From a phage: DNA of 64,000 nucleotides. The notes beneath the pieces were generated by a model. The model saw nothing but the letters and a program-made list of their open reading frames with translations. It made no database searches and had not been told where the DNA came from. The stretch lies in sequence record OZ346219.1; one strand, 5' to 3'. A program made the position numbers and the translations under genes. Shown in pieces: positions 1,025 through 63,189 of the stretch (positions within the stretch are counted from its first letter, which is position 1; each line of letters starts with the position of its first letter).

Positions 1025-1032
1025 TATAAATA
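1025..1032 (+). promoter_or_regulatory. T4-type late promoter (TATAAATA) upstream of gp36
   Basis: Exact TATAAATA at 1025-1032, ~35 nt upstream of the gp36 ATG (1067); matches the T4 late promoter consensus recognised by gp55. Confidence 0.6.
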
Positions 1033-1066: not shown

Positions 1067-2557
1067 ATGGCAGATTTGAAATATGGATCTACTGTAGGTG
1101 GATCTCCCATTTGGACGCAAGGAAATTTGACGATCCAGCCAGCGGGGGATCAGCTTTTCTACAAAGGTCATAAAATCTATACCGCTTTTGATAGACCTTC
1201 GGCTACCGATTTTGATGCTGTTAGTGCATCCGAAGGTGGCACATTTCAAAAGCAAGTTCATTTCGAGGAAGGTTTAAGCGTAGGTAGCGCATCGGCTGGA
1301 GAAACCAAAAAGAATGGTATCTTTAAAGGTCAGAGTGACGCTGCTAATTTTGACGGCGTAAGCTGGGGTTTGCATTCATGGAAGTCAATCGGCTTTGTTA
1401 ATGCCCGTGATGGCGTTATTATGGCGTATATTGACACCACAACGGGCGAATTTAAGTCTAAAGGGACTATCGAAGGGACAACCATTAAAGACACAGGTCA
1501 ACGCGTCTATAGCCCTGTTAATAAACCAACGAATAATGATTTGGATTTAGTTTCCCGTCGCGGTGATACTCTCACAGGAACATATAATTTAAACACTGTC
1601 ACTGTTAAACTATCGGTTGATTCGAAATTAATTGCAAGGGAACGTGATTTAATTAATTTTGATGCGACTAAGATCTATTATGGTAACGTTCTTGATACGT
1701 TGGTCTTCCGAAGTAAAGATGAGCCTACCATTTTTGTTAATGGCAAAGAAGGTCGTTTTTATCACACCAACAATAAACCAACTAAAGCCGATGTTGGGCT
1801 AGGCAATGTCACCAATGATGCACAGGTTAAACGTGCTGGTGATATTATGGAAGGTAACTTGCAAGCGCCTAGAATGTTGGCGACAAACGATCCTGCTGGT
1901 CCTAATGAATTGGTTCGTTTGAGCTACTTTGAGAGAAAATCAATGGTAGCAAATCCAACCATCATTGGAAACGTTGATTGGAACACTCTTATTAATCGCG
2001 GTATCTATCGTGTGGAAAATGCTGGATCAGGTACTAATAAACCGTCTGATAGCTATTATAACGGCGTTTTGATGGTATATCGCCCAGAAGATGCTGTTGG
2101 TACTCGTCGAATTGTTCAGGTGTATTATCCTGAATCTATTGACCATCCGATGTGCTGGCGTTCGTGTTCTAATGAATCATGGACTGCATGGAACTATGTA
2201 GATCACCGTAAATTAGCCGATATTCGCTATGTTAACGTCACTGGCGATACCATGACAGGACCGTTAACTGTTCCTGCTGCAAATGGCGTTAGAACAGCTA
2301 AAACTAACTATAACGGGGATAACTGTTATGCGGCGTTAAGCGGTGCTGATGGTACTGCTATGATTCACCGCATTAGTGATATTAAAGGGACCGAAAAGCT
2401 GGGGATCACCCACGACTCAAAGGTCGTGTTTTTCCGTTCTAGAAACAATACTCAAACCGTGGACCGCTATCAGCTTTATCATGAAGGTAATAAACCTACT
2501 CCGGCTGATGTTGGAGCGGTTCCACTTAATGCGGTGATTGATTTTGGTACTTTCTAA
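1067..2557 (+). CDS. gp36: long tail fibre subunit gp36 (496 aa, longer than T4 gp36)
   Basis: N-terminus MADLKYGSTVGGSPIWTQGN... matches recalled T4 gp36 N-terminus; sits between gp35-like and gp37. Confidence 0.75.
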   Translation: MADLKYGSTVGGSPIWTQGNLTIQPAGDQLFYKGHKIYTAFDRPSATDFDAVSASEGGTFQKQVHFEEGLSVGSASAGETKKNGIFKGQSDAANFDGVSWGLHSWKSIGFVNARDGVIMAYIDTTTGEFKSKGTIEGTTIKDTGQRVYSPVNKPTNNDLDLVSRRGDTLTGTYNLNTVTVKLSVDSKLIARERDLINFDATKIYYGNVLDTLVFRSKDEPTIFVNGKEGRFYHTNNKPTKADVGLGNVTNDAQVKRAGDIMEGNLQAPRMLATNDPAGPNELVRLSYFERKSMVANPTIIGNVDWNTLINRGIYRVENAGSGTNKPSDSYYNGVLMVYRPEDAVGTRRIVQVYYPESIDHPMCWRSCSNESWTAWNYVDHRKLADIRYVNVTGDTMTGPLTVPAANGVRTAKTNYNGDNCYAALSGADGTAMIHRISDIKGTEKLGITHDSKVVFFRSRNNTQTVDRYQLYHEGNKPTPADVGAVPLNAVIDFGTF

Positions 2558-2627: not shown

Positions 2628-5564
2628 ATGGCAGATTTAAACAGAATCCAATTTAAACGTACTAGCACGAAAGGTCGTAAACCTGATGCTACTACAATGA
2701 CGCAAGGTGAACTTGCTATCAACCTGCATGATTATTATTTGTTTACAAAAAATGACTCTGGTTCTATTATTAACTTAAGCTGTCCTCCGATCTATGACCG
2801 CGATGTTATCATGGCTGGTAAAGTAAAGGGAGATTATTACATTTTAGGTAAAACCGCCAATTATCTTGAAGATCAGACAGCGAGAGACCTTAACCGTTTT
2901 GGGGCATTCCGTACCAACGGTCTAGATGGATTTTTAGATTTGACCTTGCATGTTCCTCATTCTGGTGGCGTTCAACATGGTCGAGGATTTACTTTCAATT
3001 ATGGACACACAGGACCGCGCGTAGAAACTTATGGATATAATGCACAGGGACAAAAAGCATTTAGTTATAAAATGTATCACGAAGGTGATAAACCAACTCC
3101 AGGAGAATTGAACGTCTATAGCAAACAAGAAGTAGATAGAATGTTTGTTAAGAACGTTAAACTTTCTACAGGTTCTGGTGATATCGTTGAAGGTTATTTT
3201 AAATTAGCGACTGCGATGATTCCACAAGACGGTCGTAGTGTATTTTTTCGTATTCATGGTGGTAACGGATATAACGTTACTGCATACGATCAAGTTGATA
3301 TTGTAGAAATTGTTATTCGCAGTGGAAATAATCGTCCTAAAGGTGTTAACGTTATTGCATACCGCCGAAATACAAACAAAGCATTTGATGTTTTGGCTGT
3401 TAATACTTCTGGTGATAACTATGATATCTACGTGAAATATCAGCGTTGCACTGATAACGTTATTGTTGAATTTGGTAAAAGTGTTGATGTTAATCTGGTA
3501 GTTCATGACGTTCCAGACTTTGTTGTTGATCGTCCTGTTGGCGATAATGTTATTGGCGGTCGCGCGGTAACTCTTTTCAACACCGAAAACAAACGAGGTG
3601 TGTTGAGTTTTGACGATAACACACAAAATAGTTATGATATTGTTCACTTGAGTAATGATAAGGGTACTGGACGAAAATATATTCGTAAATTCCGTAGTAA
3701 CTATAATGAAACGATCTGGCATGAGACGGTTCAAGGTAACGTATATCGTTTAGCTACTGGAACTACCGACGCAAACGAAGTTCTCAAAATTACCGACCGC
3801 ACGTTGCAAACTGGCAATGCTGTTTTTGATGGTGGTAATAATAATGTTCGTTTACATCGTAAAACCGGAAAAAGTAACTATCTGGAATATTATGATGCCC
3901 GTAACGGAGCAAATAAACGTCAGGGATATATTGGCTATGGTGATGCCACAACTAACCAGTTGTCAATTATTAACGAACTCTCCGAAGGTAATAACTCGAT
4001 TTTCTTTAACGAGACAGGTCAAATTTCACTTAACGTAGGAAAGACAAAAATTGTTCATAGCAACGGACAATATATTTCTACTAACGCCGATAACTATCGT
4101 ATAATTTATGGTAATTATGGAACATTCTGGCGAAATGATAGCGTTAAACTTTATCTCATGTCCACTGCCGAAAATGATAAATGGGGTACTTGGAATAGCT
4201 ATCGACCATTCATTTACAACCTAACCAACGGCGATGTTCAATTGGGTGGTGATGCCAATACAACCGTATTGACCTTAGAAGCAGCAAGCAAAATCTCAAG
4301 ATTTGGTGGTTCTGTTTATAGCGGTGGCGATTTTTATAATAAAGGCCAGTATATCATAATGGAAGCTGGGCGCGCTGGATCTCGCGATTATATTCGATTT
4401 AATCATTGGGGTGATAGTAATAATGCCCGTGATAACGTTTTGTACATAGAAGATAGTCAAGGCCGACATTTTAGCACAGAACGTGCGATGGGTACTGGTG
4501 CTCTTAAAGCATACTTCTTAGGCGATCTTGAAGTCGGTGGTAAGTTTACTTGGGGTAAAAATACAGCTACATCTAGCTTTAATATTCGTGCATGGGGTAA
4601 TGATTCCCGTAAACAAGTATTAGAATGCGCGGATGAAAGTGGGTGGCATTGGTACACACAACGAACGGGCGGTCCTGATACTTCTGCAATTGATTTTGCC
4701 ATCAATGGTACTGTTAGGCCTCAAGCAATTCACACTGGCGGTAATATCACGCTTAACGGTGCTGATATTGAATTTAAACGAAGCGGTAACAAGCATTTAT
4801 GGTTTAGAGATCCGAACGGCTTAGAGTTGGGTCTGTTGTACTGCGATGATGCTGGTGTTATGCGTATTCGTGGGGAGAAATCGACCGAAGTATGGAAATT
4901 CTCAGCAAAACAGATTCATCTGGAAACTGGTACTGCCGGAAATGGTGTAGGCTTGCTTCGTGGTGCTGTAGGTGGTGGCGCATGGACTCAATGGCGAGAT
5001 CGTGGCACTGGCTTGCAGGTTGATTGTCAGCAATCTGAAAACTCAGCGCATAACGTATGGAGAGCTACGCATCAAGGAAAATACCACATCGCGGCAATGG
5101 GTGTACACGTTCCTGGTGGTACTATCGGAAATGCTATGGTGCGTATTCACGTACACGATGCAACTTTTGACTTTAGCGCAACTGGTGATTTCCAAGCAGG
5201 TCGTAACGGTAATTTTAACGATGTGTACATTCGTTCTGATGCTCGCCTGAAAATCAATAAGGAAGAGTATAAAGAGAATGCTACCGATAAAGTTAATCGC
5301 TTGACGGTATACACCTATGACAAGGTTAAATCTTTAACTGACCGTACTGTCATTGCTCATGAAGTTGGTATTATTGCTCAGGATCTTGAGAAAGAATTGC
5401 CAGAAGCAGTAAAAACCTCGAAGATCGGCGACGGTGATACACCAGAAGAGATCTTAACAATTTCTAACTCTGCTGTCAACGCTCTTTTAATTAAGGCGTT
5501 TCAGGAAATGAGTGAAGAACTTAAAGCCGTTAAAGCTGAACTAGCGGAACTTAAAAAGAATTAA
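2628..5564 (+). CDS. gp37: long tail fibre distal subunit gp37 (978 aa) with C-terminal intramolecular chaperone (peptidase S74-like) domain
   Basis: N-terminus MADLNRIQFKRTSTKGRKPD...GELAINL matches T4 gp37. C-terminus ...SDARLKINKEEY...AHEVGIIAQDLEKELPEAV...LKAVKAELAELKKN fits the S-D-x-R-L-K autocleaving chaperone domain of endosialidase-type fibres and lacks the T4 HxH needle repeats. Confidence 0.85.
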   Translation: MADLNRIQFKRTSTKGRKPDATTMTQGELAINLHDYYLFTKNDSGSIINLSCPPIYDRDVIMAGKVKGDYYILGKTANYLEDQTARDLNRFGAFRTNGLDGFLDLTLHVPHSGGVQHGRGFTFNYGHTGPRVETYGYNAQGQKAFSYKMYHEGDKPTPGELNVYSKQEVDRMFVKNVKLSTGSGDIVEGYFKLATAMIPQDGRSVFFRIHGGNGYNVTAYDQVDIVEIVIRSGNNRPKGVNVIAYRRNTNKAFDVLAVNTSGDNYDIYVKYQRCTDNVIVEFGKSVDVNLVVHDVPDFVVDRPVGDNVIGGRAVTLFNTENKRGVLSFDDNTQNSYDIVHLSNDKGTGRKYIRKFRSNYNETIWHETVQGNVYRLATGTTDANEVLKITDRTLQTGNAVFDGGNNNVRLHRKTGKSNYLEYYDARNGANKRQGYIGYGDATTNQLSIINELSEGNNSIFFNETGQISLNVGKTKIVHSNGQYISTNADNYRIIYGNYGTFWRNDSVKLYLMSTAENDKWGTWNSYRPFIYNLTNGDVQLGGDANTTVLTLEAASKISRFGGSVYSGGDFYNKGQYIIMEAGRAGSRDYIRFNHWGDSNNARDNVLYIEDSQGRHFSTERAMGTGALKAYFLGDLEVGGKFTWGKNTATSSFNIRAWGNDSRKQVLECADESGWHWYTQRTGGPDTSAIDFAINGTVRPQAIHTGGNITLNGADIEFKRSGNKHLWFRDPNGLELGLLYCDDAGVMRIRGEKSTEVWKFSAKQIHLETGTAGNGVGLLRGAVGGGAWTQWRDRGTGLQVDCQQSENSAHNVWRATHQGKYHIAAMGVHVPGGTIGNAMVRIHVHDATFDFSATGDFQAGRNGNFNDVYIRSDARLKINKEEYKENATDKVNRLTVYTYDKVKSLTDRTVIAHEVGIIAQDLEKELPEAVKTSKIGDGDTPEEILTISNSAVNALLIKAFQEMSEELKAVKAELAELKKN

Positions 5565-5598
5565 GGAAACTCCCAGGGAAGGGAACTACTAAGGAGAA

Positions 5599-5844
5599 AT
5601 GGCTATGGTCTATAATATCGTCATTGGTGCTTTATCTAATTTCGGAATGAAATTATTGTCAAAGTTAATTAGTGAAAAGATGCTCACTAAAATTTTCTTC
5701 TATTGCGCTCGTCGTCTTGCGGCTTATACCAATACACCAATTGACGATCGTTTTGTGGAAGAACTTTATAAGGAGTTTAATAAAGACCAGTCAGAAGATA
5801 GTAACGAGCAAGATAAACCTAGTGATAGTCAACTACCTAAATAA
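5599..5844 (+). CDS. hypothetical small protein (81 aa), hydrophobic N-terminus, acidic C-terminus
   Basis: Strong RBS (AAGGAG) 5 nt upstream of the ATG; occupies the slot between gp37 and holin t where T-even phages carry gp38. Confidence 0.45.
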   Translation: MAMVYNIVIGALSNFGMKLLSKLISEKMLTKIFFYCARRLAAYTNTPIDDRFVEELYKEFNKDQSEDSNEQDKPSDSQLPK

Positions 5845-5877: not shown

Positions 5878-6534
5878 ATGCAAGTTTCTGAAAAAGGGAA
5901 AGACTTTGCTATCTCAAATGTCCTGCGCGCTATTTTCACAACTAAAAGCACGGAGTTGCTCGTACTTCGTGTTTTTGCTGCCGTCGTGTTGTCCATATTG
6001 GCATTTGTCGTTTATAGTAAAAACGAGTTATTTGCGCTTTATAAAGAGACTCGTTATGAGACTTATGCTCACATTCTCCAGGTAGAGAAAGACCGCAATT
6101 TTGATAATGCAGCACAGGAGCAGTTACAGATAGTTCATGTGTCGGCTGATGCCGATTTTTCTGCTGTTTTTAGTTTTCGTCCGAAAAACCTAAACTATTT
6201 TGTTGATTTGGTGGCATATGAAGGAAAGCTACCACACACAATCGATGAAAAAAATTTAGGCGGATTCCCTATCAATAAAACGAGTGAAGAATATCGTAGG
6301 CATCTTTTAGGTAAATCATATTTTACCGATAAAGATTTCCAGTATATTCCATCAAGAGAAAAGAAATTAGAGAATATCGATATAGGTTTCATGTATTCTT
6401 GTCCTATATTCAATCTCGATAATGTCTATTCTGGTAGTATCGCCATTTCATGGAAGAATAAACCGGATATTGACATTGAGAATTTAGATACTCTTTGCAA
6501 TCAATCTGCCAGAATCCTCGGAAGGATTAGATAA
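5878..6534 (+). CDS. t: holin t (218 aa)
   Basis: Same length as T4 holin; conserved stretches LQIVHVSADADFSAVFSFRPKNLNYFVD, YSCPIFNLDNVYSGSI, ARILGR match the recalled T4 T sequence. Confidence 0.9.
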   Translation: MQVSEKGKDFAISNVLRAIFTTKSTELLVLRVFAAVVLSILAFVVYSKNELFALYKETRYETYAHILQVEKDRNFDNAAQEQLQIVHVSADADFSAVFSFRPKNLNYFVDLVAYEGKLPHTIDEKNLGGFPINKTSEEYRRHLLGKSYFTDKDFQYIPSREKKLENIDIGFMYSCPIFNLDNVYSGSIAISWKNKPDIDIENLDTLCNQSARILGRIR

Positions 6535-57483: not shown

Positions 57484-57741
57484 TTAGTGAATTAACTCTA
57501 CACCAAAATGAGGCACAGAGAACGCCTTACAAAACACATATTCATCATGTTTAGGAATCGCCCCTAACCGCTCTATTTCGCTCGCTAACACTATAAACTG
57601 TTTATCTGGTGCATATGCCTTGCGTGCTTCAACAACGCACGGAAAACGCGTTTTAGAGAGTTCTGGATAGTTTTCCGAATCCAGCAGGACAATGAATACC
57701 CTGTTACATTGATTGTAGAATCCTGTTTTTGATTTCATCAA
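57484..57741 (-). CDS. hypothetical protein (85 aa)
   Basis: Track ORF. Confidence 0.4.
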   Translation of the reverse strand: MMKSKTGFYNQCNRVFIVLLDSENYPELSKTRFPCVVEARKAYAPDKQFIVLASEIERLGAIPKHDEYVFCKAFSVPHFGVELIH

Positions 57742-58045
57742 GTTTTCCTCTCAGTACAATTCGTGAAATCTTCCCTTCATGATTTCGTTGGTTCTTGTCT
57801 TCACAGTTTACCCATTCAACAAGGTCTTTACCTAACTCGAAAGCCCATTCTCGGTCCTGCTTTACGTTTTGTAGGTATGGACTTTCTGACACTCTACGAA
57901 GTGATGTTGTCGTAACAAGAATGATCTCAGGAATGGTCGGATGTTCTTTTCCATATACAATAGGACGCGAGTCACTATCAATACCTTGTAAGAAGGTGTA
58001 TCCTGAATCACTTAGAATCATATACTTTTTCATTTCACACATCAC
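57704..58045 (-). CDS. hypothetical protein (113 aa)
   Basis: Track ORF. Confidence 0.4.
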   Translation of the reverse strand: MMCEMKKYMILSDSGYTFLQGIDSDSRPIVYGKEHPTIPEIILVTTTSLRRVSESPYLQNVKQDREWAFELGKDLVEWVNCEDKNQRNHEGKISRIVLRGKLDEIKNRILQSM

Positions 58046-58299
58046 AGTTTCCTCAACCAGTTATTAAAGCTAGCAAACCATGATGCTTTTCGTGCTTCTT
58101 TTACTTTATGTGCACGTAAACCACTGAAACACCATTCATAATCATCACTGAAACATGATTCAACAGGAACACCCGCATTTCGTAGTTCTCTGGTCTTTAT
58201 CATGAATCCTTGACATAATGGGCGACCTTCAACAATGATAGGAAGTTTAACTTTTTCCATGAAAGTATACCCAGCACGGTCAATAATTTCAATCTTCAT
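58042..58299 (-). CDS. hypothetical protein (85 aa), MKIEIID family paralog
   Basis: MKIEIIDRAGYTFMEKVKLPIIVEGR... is shared with 58318-58515 and, more distantly, 60632-60853. Confidence 0.45.
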   Translation of the reverse strand: MKIEIIDRAGYTFMEKVKLPIIVEGRPLCQGFMIKTRELRNAGVPVESCFSDDYEWCFSGLRAHKVKEARKASWFASFNNWLRKL

Positions 58300-58317
58300 A
58301 ATATAATCCTCAATTAG

Positions 58318-58515
58318 TTATACCGCCCAGGCTTCATTTGCACGAAAACACCATTCATATTCAGGAAAATAACCTTTAATTGGTACGCCAGCTTTTTGTA
58401 GTTCCTGCGTTTCTACAAGATAATCAAGCCCATAACGACGACCTTCCACGATGATAGGAAGTTTAACGCCATTCATGAAAGAAAATCCACCGTCATCAAT
58501 AATTTCAATTTTCAT
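58318..58515 (-). CDS. hypothetical protein (65 aa), MKIEIID family paralog
   Basis: MKIEIIDDGGFSFMNGVKLPIIVEGR...QELQKAGVP. Confidence 0.45.
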   Translation of the reverse strand: MKIEIIDDGGFSFMNGVKLPIIVEGRRYGLDYLVETQELQKAGVPIKGYFPEYEWCFRANEAWAV

Positions 58516-58759
58516 TTACATTGTCTCCATAGATCTTTCCAGCAATATCAATTTCACCAGCGCGAACATCTAGGATAAGATGCGGTAGGTGTATGCAGTT
58601 TTCCCACCCTACGCGCTTCATTTCTGAAACAGTGACGTAAGCCCATCCGTTCGCTGTAATAAAGTCTACTTCAACCTTGAGAGGAAAGCAAGACTTTTCT
58701 ATGTCTTCGAATCCGATAATGTGTTTTGTCGTTGAATATGGAATATATCCGGTGATCAT
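58505..58759 (-). CDS. hypothetical protein (84 aa)
   Basis: Track ORF. Confidence 0.4.
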   Translation of the reverse strand: MITGYIPYSTTKHIIGFEDIEKSCFPLKVEVDFITANGWAYVTVSEMKRVGWENCIHLPHLILDVRAGEIDIAGKIYGDNVNEN

Positions 58760-59217
58760 TTTGTGATCTCCTTATACTCAACACACCATAAGCGGGTAGC
58801 CCATGATAAACGCTCATAACGCTGGCAGAAATCGGACCATAGATATTGTGCACCGTTCGGCATAGTTGAAATATGCGTTTTCTCTCCAACTTTCACGAAA
58901 GAAGTATTCGATTTTGTGATCTCGACCGGAGTATATCCGAAAGCGGGTTCCAAGCCAACATCTGAACTAAATGCCAATTTAACAGAATTTGTTTTTCTGA
59001 CCGCTGTCCGGTTTCCTTCTGGGTATAGTACAGCAGGTTTAGCGCCTAAGCGGATAAACTCAGTGTTTTTAATAAACAGAATATCATGATAACCGTCATA
59101 TTCCGACACTTCCATAGTAACAGGAAAATCGACATGTGCTAAACCTGGTAGATCTCGCATATCATGAAAGGTCGCCATCAACTTTTTCATTCTATATTCC
59201 TCACTCTTCTGTTTCAT
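58756..59217 (-). CDS. hypothetical protein (153 aa)
   Basis: Track ORF. Confidence 0.4.
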   Translation of the reverse strand: MKQKSEEYRMKKLMATFHDMRDLPGLAHVDFPVTMEVSEYDGYHDILFIKNTEFIRLGAKPAVLYPEGNRTAVRKTNSVKLAFSSDVGLEPAFGYTPVEITKSNTSFVKVGEKTHISTMPNGAQYLWSDFCQRYERLSWATRLWCVEYKEITK

Positions 59218-59437
59218 TTCTTTTATATGGTACTATAACAGGATTAATACAGCAAGCACCAATTACGTTATGAGCACCACAATTTAAGCATTTATAATCA
59301 TGGAACTTATTAAGGAATCGCCCGAACTCATAACCGACTAGCGCCGCATGTACTTGAGTCTCGATCTCATCCATATCAGCCAATGTTTTAACCTTCATAA
59401 TATAATCCTCAAATTGTAGTTTTGCGAAGATGGTCAT
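59201..59437 (-). CDS. hypothetical protein (78 aa) with C-x-x-C pair
   Basis: Track ORF; contains CLNCGAHNVIGACC. Confidence 0.35.
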   Translation of the reverse strand: MTIFAKLQFEDYIMKVKTLADMDEIETQVHAALVGYEFGRFLNKFHDYKCLNCGAHNVIGACCINPVIVPYKRNETEE

Positions 59438-59699
59438 TACATGCTTTTAATGCATCGGTCGCGGTGTCATAGCGAGTATTATCATAGCACCAATAACCAT
59501 CTGTCAACTGATAAATTAATCCATCCTTTTTAGCTTCGATGAAAGATAACTCTTTGAAAGTTTCTACTTTCTTTGCTGATAATCCACGGTCACGGCGCTT
59601 ATAGAGTTTAGCCAAAATGCGTTCAGCTTGTTCCTCTTTATCACCAGACAGATCCCAGATGATGTTTCGGATATGCTTGATTAATTGTTCAGTGGTCAT
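59409..59699 (-). CDS. hypothetical protein (96 aa)
   Basis: Promoter 59729-59756 and RBS AAGGAGA upstream. Confidence 0.45.
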   Translation of the reverse strand: MTTEQLIKHIRNIIWDLSGDKEEQAERILAKLYKRRDRGLSAKKVETFKELSFIEAKKDGLIYQLTDGYWCYDNTRYDTATDALKACNDHLRKTTI

Positions 59700-59728: not shown

Positions 59729-59756
59729 ATTATAGCATTGTGATTATCTTTGTCAA
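59729..59756 (-). promoter_or_regulatory. early promoter TTGACA-16-TATAAT
   Basis: Minus strand: TTGACAaagataatcacaatgcTATAAT. Confidence 0.55.
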
Positions 59757-59792
59757 CACCCAAAAACAAAAAAGGCTACCCCGAAGGATAGC
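59757..59792 (-). terminator. rho-independent terminator after the gp38-like gene (GGCTATCC-ttcg-GGGTAGCC plus U-run)
   Basis: Hairpin followed on the minus strand by TTTTTTGTTTTTGGG; same architecture as 50152-50189 and 62165-62200. Confidence 0.55.
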
Positions 59793-59800
59793 CCATAAAA

Positions 59801-60577
59801 TTACACGCGAGCACCGTAGATCGTGCCTACTTTATCCCAGCGAGGGGCATTACCAGTAACAGCTTTACCCGCAGCACCACCGTTATATTCTGTACCGTTC
59901 CCCTGAGTATTACATCTTCCTCCAGCAGCACCAACGTTACCGCCCGCACCACCTGTATATGCACTAAGAGACCCCTTACCAACAGATCCTTTACCCGGAG
60001 CGGAAATGGAGCCAGCGGTTGCACCAGAACCCATATTAGAGGAAGACCCGGCAGCACCGAATGGGCGACCACCGCCGCCACCAAATACTAGTCGACCCCT
60101 GTTACCGCCGCCACCGCCACCACCGCCGCCAGCGATAGCACCGTTATTTGTAATTCGTAGACGTGTACCGATAGCGTTATTGATTGCGTTTCCACCAGCA
60201 GCGCCAGCAGCGTTACTACCACCATTACCCCCACGTCCGTAGACAGTCACACCGGAGTTAATGATCAATGTTACATATTCGTTTGTTAACGAGCTAGGGA
60301 AGTCAAGACAAGGAACGCCAGTAGATTGGGAAACAATATTACCTGTGATAGTAATTACTACCGGAGTAGATCCTTGTGCTTTCATCCAGTTAATAAGAGT
60401 GTCTTTATTGTAAGAGTTACTAGCACCAATGCTATAATGAATCTCTTTAGAACGTCCGACCATTGCTGACATATACGCCGGACGACCTAAGCGAACAGCT
60501 TGCATTGCGGCGCTCATCCACCGTTGACCAGTCTCGGACACAGCAGATGATCCTACCCATCCAGAAGATATTGCCAT
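59801..60577 (-). CDS. glycine-rich protein resembling the T2/S16-type gp38 tail-fibre adhesin (258 aa)
   Basis: N-terminus SSGWVGSSAVSETGQRWMSAAMQAVRLG then repeated poly-Gly motifs (GRGGNGGSN, GGGGGGGGGNRG, FGGGGGRPFGAAG) separated by short variable segments; assignment from recalled family features only. Confidence 0.5.
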   Translation of the reverse strand: MAISSGWVGSSAVSETGQRWMSAAMQAVRLGRPAYMSAMVGRSKEIHYSIGASNSYNKDTLINWMKAQGSTPVVITITGNIVSQSTGVPCLDFPSSLTNEYVTLIINSGVTVYGRGGNGGSNAAGAAGGNAINNAIGTRLRITNNGAIAGGGGGGGGGNRGRLVFGGGGGRPFGAAGSSSNMGSGATAGSISAPGKGSVGKGSLSAYTGGAGGNVGAAGGRCNTQGNGTEYNGGAAGKAVTGNAPRWDKVGTIYGARV

Positions 60578-60581
60578 AAAA

Positions 60582-60613
60582 TTTCCTCACAAGAAAAGCC
60601 CCAATTAAGGGGC
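60582..60613 (-). terminator. stem-loop GCCCC-ttaatt-GGGGC plus U-run immediately upstream of the gp38-like ATG
   Basis: 5-bp GC stem followed on the minus strand by TTTTCTTG, RBS GAGGAAA and ATG. Confidence 0.4.
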
Positions 60614-60631
60614 ATTGATTGATAATATTAC

Positions 60632-60853
60632 TTAGATGACCTCTGCTTCACCATCCAGGAAGAAAGACCATGTTTTGTTAGGATAGCGAAGCGCCCATGA
60701 TTCAGCAGTTTTAACACCCGCTTCGAACAATTGACGGCTGGTTACTTTAGCCATACCATCTTCGATGGCAACGTTTTCAATAATCATCGGGTACTTAGCG
60801 CCACGCATGAAACCGAAACCAGCGGAAGATTTGATAATTTTAACAGTTGCCAT
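60632..60853 (-). CDS. hypothetical protein (73 aa), distant MKIEIID-family member
   Basis: MATVKIIKSSAGFGFMRGAKYPMIIENVAI...LFEAGV parallels the 58042/58318 paralogs; promoter and RBS upstream. Confidence 0.45.
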   Translation of the reverse strand: MATVKIIKSSAGFGFMRGAKYPMIIENVAIEDGMAKVTSRQLFEAGVKTAESWALRYPNKTWSFFLDGEAEVI

Positions 60854-60894: not shown

Positions 60895-60923
60895 ATTATG
60901 CAATAACACCGGATCGCTGTCAA
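60895..60923 (-). promoter_or_regulatory. early promoter TTGACA-17-CATAAT
   Basis: Minus strand: TTGACAgcgatccggtgttattgCATAAT. Confidence 0.5.
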
Positions 60924-61225: not shown

Positions 61226-61572
61226 GCCAGACCTCGCAAAATACTAATAGCATAATCATGCTGGTTATTCATAATATCAATTGCATTGTGATAACGAGCT
61301 AAACCATCAAGGATAAATTCTTGTTTATCCTGTTTCAGTTTGGTATCACGCGCAGCCATAAGAGCATCAAGAACAGGTCCAAAGTGATTATCTAATTCAT
61401 CTTCGGTTGCAATATTTCCTATTGCCTCGTCGATCCGTGATTCTAATGCTTGCTTTTCGTTGATCACTTGCTGGGTATATTCCAACACATCAAGAATATC
61501 GCGGGTAACGTCGCCATGATAAGGTATTCCCGCATGAAGGTGATCAATTAGTCGTTGAATGTCAATGTTCAT
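61222..61572 (-). CDS. hypothetical protein (116 aa)
   Basis: Track ORF. Confidence 0.4.
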   Translation of the reverse strand: MNIDIQRLIDHLHAGIPYHGDVTRDILDVLEYTQQVINEKQALESRIDEAIGNIATEDELDNHFGPVLDALMAARDTKLKQDKQEFILDGLARYHNAIDIMNNQHDYAISILRGLA

Positions 61573-62433: not shown

Positions 62434-62832
62434 TTAAGACAGTCGAGTGAGTTTATAAATTGTTTTAAAACATAGAGCTTTGATATCGTCTAAAACGCTC
62501 TGTAACGAGCTATCAACATCATTATAAATCTCACTAGCCATTTGCGTTAACTCTTGCAAATAGGCAATTTCGCTAATCTCCTTGCGGACGACCAACGTTG
62601 GCTGATAACGACCAGTGATCCCAATATTGGTTTCAGTGAAATCATCAACCAATTCTTGCATTTCAAGATAGAACTCTTCTAGAGCCTTATGTTTTGCATA
62701 AGATCCAGGACCAGTTACCCCAAAATGCGCAGAATGCATATAAGTAACACTCATCAGACATTCACCGATAAAGCGGTCAACTTTATTAGCTTTCCCCTCT
62801 TCGGACGTCTTTAGAAAATCAATGAATTTCAT
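62434..62832 (-). CDS. hypothetical protein (132 aa; positional equivalent of T4 rI.-1)
   Basis: Track ORF trimmed to the internal ATG (MKFIDF...) to avoid a long overlap with the rI-like gene. Confidence 0.4.
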   Translation of the reverse strand: MKFIDFLKTSEEGKANKVDRFIGECLMSVTYMHSAHFGVTGPGSYAKHKALEEFYLEMQELVDDFTETNIGITGRYQPTLVVRKEISEIAYLQELTQMASEIYNDVDSSLQSVLDDIKALCFKTIYKLTRLS

Positions 62833-63121
62833 GTTCTCTATTCTCCATATTATGCAACATAACAAACTGTTGTGCGGCATATTCCCCCATAATAAAACAC
62901 TGCTTAGAATCCATACATTTACTACGAGCATACATCTTCATAATATGGGCATGAAATTTCTGGCTGGTTTCAATGGAAGGAGATATTTTGTTTACATATA
63001 CTATCATTGCACCGTCGAAATAATCAGTAAAGTCACCAGTTGGATCATATTGATCAGCACTGACACTTCCGACCGCAGTCAAGCATATTGCCGCTGTTAG
63101 AGTTTTACGAATAAATGACAT
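62819..63121 (-). CDS. rI: RI-like antiholin (lysis-inhibition) candidate (100 aa)
   Basis: N-terminal signal/anchor MSFIRKTLTAAICLTAVGSVSA plus ~75-aa periplasmic domain; immediately next to tk as rI is in T4. Confidence 0.45.
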   Translation of the reverse strand: MSFIRKTLTAAICLTAVGSVSADQYDPTGDFTDYFDGAMIVYVNKISPSIETSQKFHAHIMKMYARSKCMDSKQCFIMGEYAAQQFVMLHNMENREHEIH

Positions 63122-63189
63122 AAGTCATTCCCCCAGATTTAAAATATTCAGTTATATTTATAATCTGGGGCTTTATTTATGATTAACTC

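Follow-up and report, generated by a model that had tools for sequence, protein, structure and literature searches.

Gene 38 and its product

The window is a stretch of 64,000 nucleotides of sequence record OZ346219.1, whose closest matches, in DNA and protein alike, are coliphages of the RB49-like genus Krischvirus. On its minus strand, an ORF of 258 amino acids with an ATG start occupies positions 59801-60577, the end coordinate including the stop codon. The gene and its product comprise the following features:

59801-60577, minus strand: gene 38 (g38), long-tail-fibre tip adhesin, from Pfam, PHROG, 6F45_D and identity to RB49 AAL15128.2
60458-60577, minus strand: Gp38_N, the gp37-attaching domain, codons 1-40 (Pfam PF21721, E=3.9e-18, model positions 1-40 of 40)
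59804-60445, minus strand: GP38 region, codons 45-258 (Pfam PF05268, E=5.3e-72, model positions 1-218 of 218)
60104-60130, minus strand: glycine run G150-G158, read from the sequence
60068-60082, minus strand: second glycine run G166-G170, read from the sequence

The translated N-terminus of gp38 reads MAISSGWVGSSAVSETGQRWMS, and its glycine motifs are GGGGGGGGGNRG at amino acids 150-161 and FGGGGGRPFGAAG at amino acids 165-177. Glycine makes up 23% of the whole protein and 33% of amino acids 115-258. The GP38 region, in which glycine-rich motifs alternate with hypervariable segments, forms the receptor-binding domain. A Pfam search with E values up to 1 returns only Gp38_N and GP38 and no tail-fibre-assembly family, and gp38 further matches PHROG 2056 ('tail fiber protein; host specificity') with E=2e-98. 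The crystallised gp38 of Salmonella phage S16 (PDB 6F45 chain D) aligns with amino acids 1-256 of the window protein (E=1e-49), and it is this full-length match that settles the family. The motif GW[VI]GSSA..ETGQRWMS is common to gp38 of the window, kvi and S16. A preliminary description of this DNA had pointed to a gp38-adhesin-like N-terminus followed by glycine motifs, and both are present as described; it had also named a lack of similarity to gp38 adhesins as counter-evidence, and what the formal search returns is similarity in Pfam, PHROG and the S16 structure alike.

The window protein has the same two-domain plan as gp38 of S16, T2 and T6, with N-terminal attachment followed by glycine motifs and variable segments, and differs from them in its loop sequences, as adhesins for different receptors should. 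The alignment with 6F45_D over the full length and the published models of RB49 gp38 (PMC9569957) suggest that it would adopt the polyglycine-II sandwich fold; a single-sequence AlphaFold2 model of the window protein has a mean pLDDT of 35.9.

The gp37 partner and the canonical slot

The tail-fibre genes lie at the other end of the window on the plus strand:

1025-1032, plus strand: late promoter TATAAATA upstream of g36-g37, exact motif
1067-2557, plus strand: g36, preceded by the end of g35 and the late promoter
2628-5564, plus strand: gene 37, distal long-tail-fibre subunit of 978 amino acids and partner of gp38 (Peptidase_S74, match to 6F45_A)
5235-5414, plus strand: Peptidase_S74 self-cleaving chaperone domain, gp37 amino acids 870-929 (E=1.2e-11; cleavage predicted)
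5599-5844, plus strand: dc5-like ORF of 81 amino acids in the usual place of g38, annotated Dc5 in RB49 and kvi
5878-6534, plus strand: holin gene t, following the dc5-like ORF, which gives the order g37, dc5-like ORF, t

The stop codon of g37 (5564) and the start of g38 (60577) are separated by about 55 kb and lie on opposite strands, the distance given in the preliminary description. A position directly downstream of g37, which is typical of g38 without defining it, is thus not found in the window. In S16, T2 and T6 g38 directly follows g37 and the two have a late transcript in common, whereas in the window 55 kb separate the two, which lie on opposite strands, and g38 stands behind a sigma-70 promoter unit. 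In the canonical slot, g38 would be served by the late promoter at 1025-1032 together with g36 and g37. Between g37 and holin t of the window there is no gp38, just the dc5-like ORF, and a tblastn search for a second gp38 across the 64-kb window finds none, gp38 being encoded in one place only. The complete genome of KFS-EC likewise has one place for gp38.

Like S16 gp37, gp37 of the window carries a C-terminal chaperone domain, as had been anticipated, and its C-terminus matches S16 gp37 (6F45_A) with E=1.7e-4; the tip upstream of the chaperone domain gives no sequence alignment with S16 gp37. Adhesins of the T2/S16 gp38 type are normally partnered by a gp37 with a self-cleaving chaperone domain, and after the removal of this domain one gp38 monomer attaches per fibre (Efimov 2022; PMC9569957). 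The self-chaperoning of gp37 therefore means that gp38 is needed and not redundant. The term orphan, which the preliminary description had applied to g38, does not suit the sole gp38 of a window with no gp38 in its canonical slot and a gp37 of the type that normally partners gp38. Nor does the window hold a second copy for which g38 could act as a spare module for host-range switching, another option that had been raised. Taken together, there is little doubt that the gene is g38 of an RB49-like Krischvirus, encoding a single-copy adhesin of the T2/S16 type which caps the long tail fibres and binds the host receptor.

KFS-EC joins an RB49-type displaced gp38 (L001 10799-11575) to a kvi-like gp37 (L005 1770-4894) which is 82% identical to that of kvi and has a tip very unlike that of the window gp37. 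One type of gp38 thus sits on two very different gp37 tips, which means that the interface for docking tolerates such differences or is only partly understood. The canonical slot of KFS-EC holds an ORF of 107 amino acids, considered as a gp38 remnant and ruled out on finding no BLASTP similarity and no Pfam or PHROG match. With its kvi-like gp37, this unrelated ORF and a displaced g38, KFS-EC looks like an intermediate.

Relatives with a displaced gene 38

Gene 38 of RB49 (AAL15128.2) encodes a protein of the same length which is 98% identical to gp38 of the window (254/258) in a gapless alignment. The four differing residues are positions 4-5 (KA in RB49, SS in the window), 176 (G and A) and 201 (E and K), of which the last, a glutamate in RB49 and a lysine in the window, falls inside the receptor-binding half. 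The KFS-EC homologue is 99.6% identical. The g38 locus (1.6 kb) is syntenic in at least 44 records at 89-99% identity, counting matches with at least 80% coverage; RB49, Phi1, JSE, GEC-3S, ECD7, Cognac, Whisky and Brandy are among them, and several carry the annotation gp38 or adhesin. RB49 gene 38 and its Krischvirus orthologues (Phi1, JSE, GEC-3S, ECD7, Cognac49, Whisky49, Brandy49, FL37 and FL38) occupy the displaced locus as in the window, with flanking ORFs, two hairpins and promoters all alike.

The possibility that g38 is a relocated adhesin, raised in the preliminary description, is borne out by the gp38 family match and by the published relocation in RB49, the exception among phages whose g38 adjoins g37 (Trojet 2011; PMC3157838). 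The displaced position is typical of the genus and has been in print since the genome of RB49 was described; for RB49 and Phi1, the literature and GenBank already record the gene, what it does and where it lies. The primary source on the relocation of RB49 g38 and on RB49 transcription is reportedly Desplats 2002, as named in Trojet 2011. What is added here are the exact junctions of an 872-bp segment that carries g38, the likeness of its 5' hairpin to that between g37 and g38 in T2, T6 and kvi, and the distance of 2.6 kb to a late promoter.

Hairpins, promoters and expression

The surroundings of g38 contain the following elements, listed in the direction of transcription:

63155-63162, minus strand: nearest late promoter on the g38 strand, TATAAATA, 2.6 kb upstream and before the rI antiholin gene (62819-63121)
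62203-62178 and 62164-62136, minus strand: terminator and promoter of an upstream PeSL (promoter-early stem-loop), between rI.-1 and four small ORFs
60895-60923, minus strand: nearest upstream sigma-70-type promoter (TTGACA, 17 nt, CATAAT), annotated as a promoter in GEC-3S
60598-60613, minus strand: 5' hairpin GCCCC-TTAATT-GGGGC followed by TTTTCTT, between a 73-aa ORF and g38
60588-60584, minus strand: Shine-Dalgarno (SD) sequence GAGGA of g38
59773-59794, minus strand: 3' terminator hairpin with a 9-bp stem, UUCG loop and T-run (-14.7 kcal/mol, z=-3.0), annotated as a terminator in GEC-3S
59729-59756, minus strand: PeSL sigma-70 early promoter with an extended -10 (TTGACA, 16 nt, TG-TATAAT; 12/12 match)

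The order along the minus strand is tk, the late promoter (63162-63155), rI antiholin, rI.-1, the upstream PeSL and four small ORFs, followed by the sigma-70 promoter (60923-60895), the 73-aa ORF, the first hairpin (60613-60598), the SD, g38, the second hairpin (59794-59773) and the last promoter (59756-59729). It had been claimed that g38 lies on the minus strand amid small early-type ORFs with terminator-like hairpins on either side, and this is indeed its setting. The authors of the GEC-3S record annotated an identical layout of terminator, g38, terminator and promoter. Several of the neighbouring small ORFs (57484-59217 and 60632-60853) look paralogous, a small-protein family repeated in the hyperplastic region around g38: examples begin with MKIEIIDRAGYTFMEKVKLPIIVEGR, MKIEIIDDGGFSFMNGVKLPIIVEGR and MATVKIIKSSAGFGFMRGAKYPMIIENV, they have the motif ELxxAGVP in common, and the 73-aa member belongs to PHROG 7345.

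The promoter at 60895-60923 heads the 73-aa ORF (60632-60853) and is a likely source of transcripts that read through into g38, and the hairpin at 60598-60613 is a probable attenuator between the two genes. It is invariant in six Krischviruses and carries a terminator annotation in GEC-3S. The promoter at 59729-59756 drives the next ORF (59409-59699) and not g38. A late promoter before g38 was sought up to 61266 as exact TATAAATA, as one-mismatch variants and in the (A/T)ATAAATA form reported for RB49, and none was found; the nearest on the strand is that at 63162, which bears out the earlier remark that no late promoter could be found for g38. TATGAATA at 61273 was rejected as a late promoter, as it lies inside an ORF and its fourth base is off consensus. 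The late promoter at 63162 corresponds to Pl:48756, the predicted late promoter which is closest to g38 in RB49 and likewise lies 2.6 kb upstream (Nolan et al. 2006), and two terminator-like hairpins separate it from g38. Because there is no late promoter within 2.5 kb and two hairpins intervene, the late expression that is expected of a virion protein is left unexplained by the sequence. Exact copies of TATAAATA number two in the 64-kb window, at 1025 (plus) and 63162 (minus), against an average of 5.75 in shuffled sequence, so that it is, if anything, scarcer than expected in what is largely an early region.

A short GC-rich hairpin between the g37 stop codon and the g38 ribosome-binding site is also seen in kvi, 310Ecol104PP, T2 and T6; the pre-g38 hairpins are located at 60598-60613 in the window, about 5181-5199 in L003 (kvi), about 3450-3467 in L010, about 553-570 in L011 and about 1222-1238 in L012. 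By analogy, the architecture of hairpin, SD and g38 may have travelled with the gene; the likeness is an analogy only, because sequence homology between the hairpins is not demonstrable. The pre-g38 hairpin may set the ratio of gp37 to gp38, as a conserved element for attenuation or stability. An RNA fold in which the g38 leader pairs over the SD and AUG is not claimed here, its z being only -2.2 with 7 of 200 shuffles folding equally well; as the flank is invariant, the leader fold shows no covariation.

The 872-bp segment and the origin of the arrangement

Alignment of the window with kvi, a phage of the species Krischvirus RB49, delimits the unit in which g38 is carried:

59760-60631: 872-bp segment (hairpin, SD, g38, hairpin) missing from kvi

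One junction lies one base past the upstream stop codon and the other at the -35 box of the PeSL. In kvi a lone PeSL (L002 1868-1928) connects the flanking ORFs, and 13 genomes have such a displaced site with the flanks only, all of them with a non-RB49 3' end of g37. FL37 and FL38 are among the cassette-bearing matches and FL15 and FL20 among those with an empty site. Some Krischviruses have been briefly reported, for the FL phages, to keep g38 beside the holin and others not (Lutz 2025; PMC12032242). In kvi, the one empty-site genome that was inspected for g38 after g37, a g38 of 259 amino acids directly follows a different gp37 in the order g37, g38, dc5, t (L003 2406-5991); FL04, FL15, FL20, G2248 and others are grouped with it as Krischviruses with a canonical g38, whose genus and backbone are those of the window. 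The C-terminal half of gp38 is about 90% identical by eye between the kvi type and the window over amino acids 136-245, whereas gp37 of kvi has only 44-49% identity to that of the window, and the 3' end of g37 and 5' end of g38 in kvi have 83-88% nucleotide identity to RB14, T6 and fPS-65. The last four codons and the spacer of an RB49-type g37 (AAAAAGAATTAAGGAAACTCCCAGGGAAGGGAACTACTAAGGAGAAA; window 5553-5600) recur as non-coding sequence after kvi g38 (L003 5992-6050). Because this remnant sits downstream of g38, the kvi arrangement is probably secondary: a foreign g37-g38 module would have entered a backbone of the RB49 type, after which the displaced copy would have been lost.

PeSL elements mediate the shuffling of cassettes in RB49 and phi1, where mini-circles have been shown for other ORFs (Arbiol 2010; PMC2839356). 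At g38 a consensus sigma-70 promoter and an adjacent GC stem-loop lie together between genes in a hyperplastic region of small ORFs, as in the PeSL of that work, and the 3' hairpin of g38 is the stem-loop half of the element as defined there. Like the cassettes described by Arbiol 2010, the PeSL at g38 marks an insertion or deletion boundary between close relatives; the PeSL cassettes of RB49 and phi1 carry ORFans, whereas the segment of the window carries a presumably essential virion gene, and unlike the PeSL-plus-ORFan units it brings no promoter in front of that gene.

Boundaries of this kind invite the explanation that the hairpin-g38-hairpin unit is a mobile host-range cassette which is moved, or lost and regained, among co-infecting Krischviruses by PeSL recombination or mini-circles, and that its position is adaptive. 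The presence or absence of a segment that ends at a stop codon on one side and at a PeSL on the other, the empty site of 13 genomes which all have a different g37 3' end, the g38 that follows g37 in kvi, the intermediate-like KFS-EC and the mini-circles of other RB49/phi1 ORFs would all suit such traffic. However, the flanks and both hairpins are nearly invariant across the cassette-bearing genomes, as would be expected if the gene had been relocated once, long ago, and then passed on vertically; the lack of an own promoter departs from the described units, the PeSL paper of 2010 is silent on g38 (PMC2839356), and variation in specificity is accounted for by recombination within the gene. An adaptive mobile cassette is therefore an unlikely explanation, compatible with the boundaries and not required by them, as one old relocation fits the invariant flanks equally well.

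Recombination of the latter kind is apparent in the Krischvirus subgroup of kaaroe, Brandy, FL37 and FL38, where the flanks are kept and the differences lie inside g38. These within-gene differences are the glycine-motif-mediated swapping of gp38 segments described by Trojet 2011 (PMC3157838). The receptor-binding part of g38 has 83-92% nucleotide identity to g38 of PaulHMueller, 310Ecol104PP and 236Ecol005PP, so that the displaced gene draws on a common gp38 pool. The best match, at 92%, is to a confirmed Tequatrovirus with g38 in the canonical slot; gp38 of 310Ecol104PP, a confirmed Tequatrovirus, has 88% protein identity to the window in a genome of the order g37-g38-t.

Function and proposed mechanism

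The evidence for a role of this gp38 in host range comes from RB49, of which mutants selected on a resistant host differ from the wild type only by gp38 E230K, or by E230K and Y231S, and for which OmpA is reported as the receptor (Efimov 2022; PMC9569957). The gapless RB49 alignment places these residues in the window:

59885-59890, minus strand: codons E230-Y231, sites of the RB49 host-range mutations, wild type in the window

From homology and the literature, gp37 would trimerise with the aid of its own C-terminal Peptidase_S74 domain, which would then be cut off, and one gp38 monomer would dock on the exposed tip through its N-terminal domain of about 40 residues. The variable loops presented by the C-terminal glycine-rich sandwich would then bind OmpA and certain O antigens. 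With g38 out of the g37-t slot and now in a hyperplastic early region, where the 872-bp hairpin-g38-hairpin segment abuts a PeSL, transcription may proceed by read-through of the weak upstream hairpin, from the early sigma-70 promoter, the rI late promoter 2.6 kb upstream, or both. A tentative and rather doubtful extension is that the displaced gene is expressed mainly by attenuated read-through of the early sigma-70 unit, so that adhesin would be stockpiled by RB49-type phages before fibres are made, and that hairpin-g38-hairpin, next to a PeSL, would serve as a host-range cassette exchanged among members of the genus.

An early receptor-blocking or exclusion protein had also been suggested. 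Such a protein would act against superinfecting phages in place of, or besides, serving as a virion adhesin, and in its favour are the location of g38 among early ORFs on the early strand, a sigma-70-type promoter (60923-60895) as the nearest upstream and the lack of a late promoter nearby. Such a role is highly improbable and finds no support in the window. Neither a signal peptide nor a membrane segment is apparent on reading the N-terminal sequence of gp38, which thus lacks an evident route to the outer membrane; the protein is the sole gp38 of a window whose gp37 is of the type needing a gp38 tip, both of its domains are intact including that for gp37 attachment, and host-range mutants of RB49 map to gp38 (PMC9569957).

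That g38 encodes a T4-type assembly chaperone, which has nothing in its favour but the inherited label 'distal long tail fiber assembly catalyst' of the RB49, JSE and GEC-3S records, has practically no likelihood, as only two adhesin families match at E up to 1, the alignment with the S16 adhesin runs end to end, g38 of T4 and g38 of T6 do not complement each other, the T4 version having been replaced by an unrelated lambda-derived sequence (PMC3157838), and the RB49 record itself bears the note 'similar to T2 and RB69 gp38 adhesin'.

Annotation and implications

The 'assembly catalyst' label is a name carried over from the unrelated gp38 of T4. In the Phi1 record g38 is annotated as 'gp38 distal long tail fiber adhesin', and the orthologue is a 'hypothetical protein' in MH560358 (KFS-EC), MZ504876-8 (Brandy, Cognac and Whisky), OX001802, OZ034687 and PQ306574. 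Both 'hypothetical' and 'assembly catalyst' are annotation errors.

A mislabelled g38 conceals the receptor-binding protein from automated host-range tools, and pipelines that seek the receptor-binding protein beside g37 will miss g38 in most Krischviruses.
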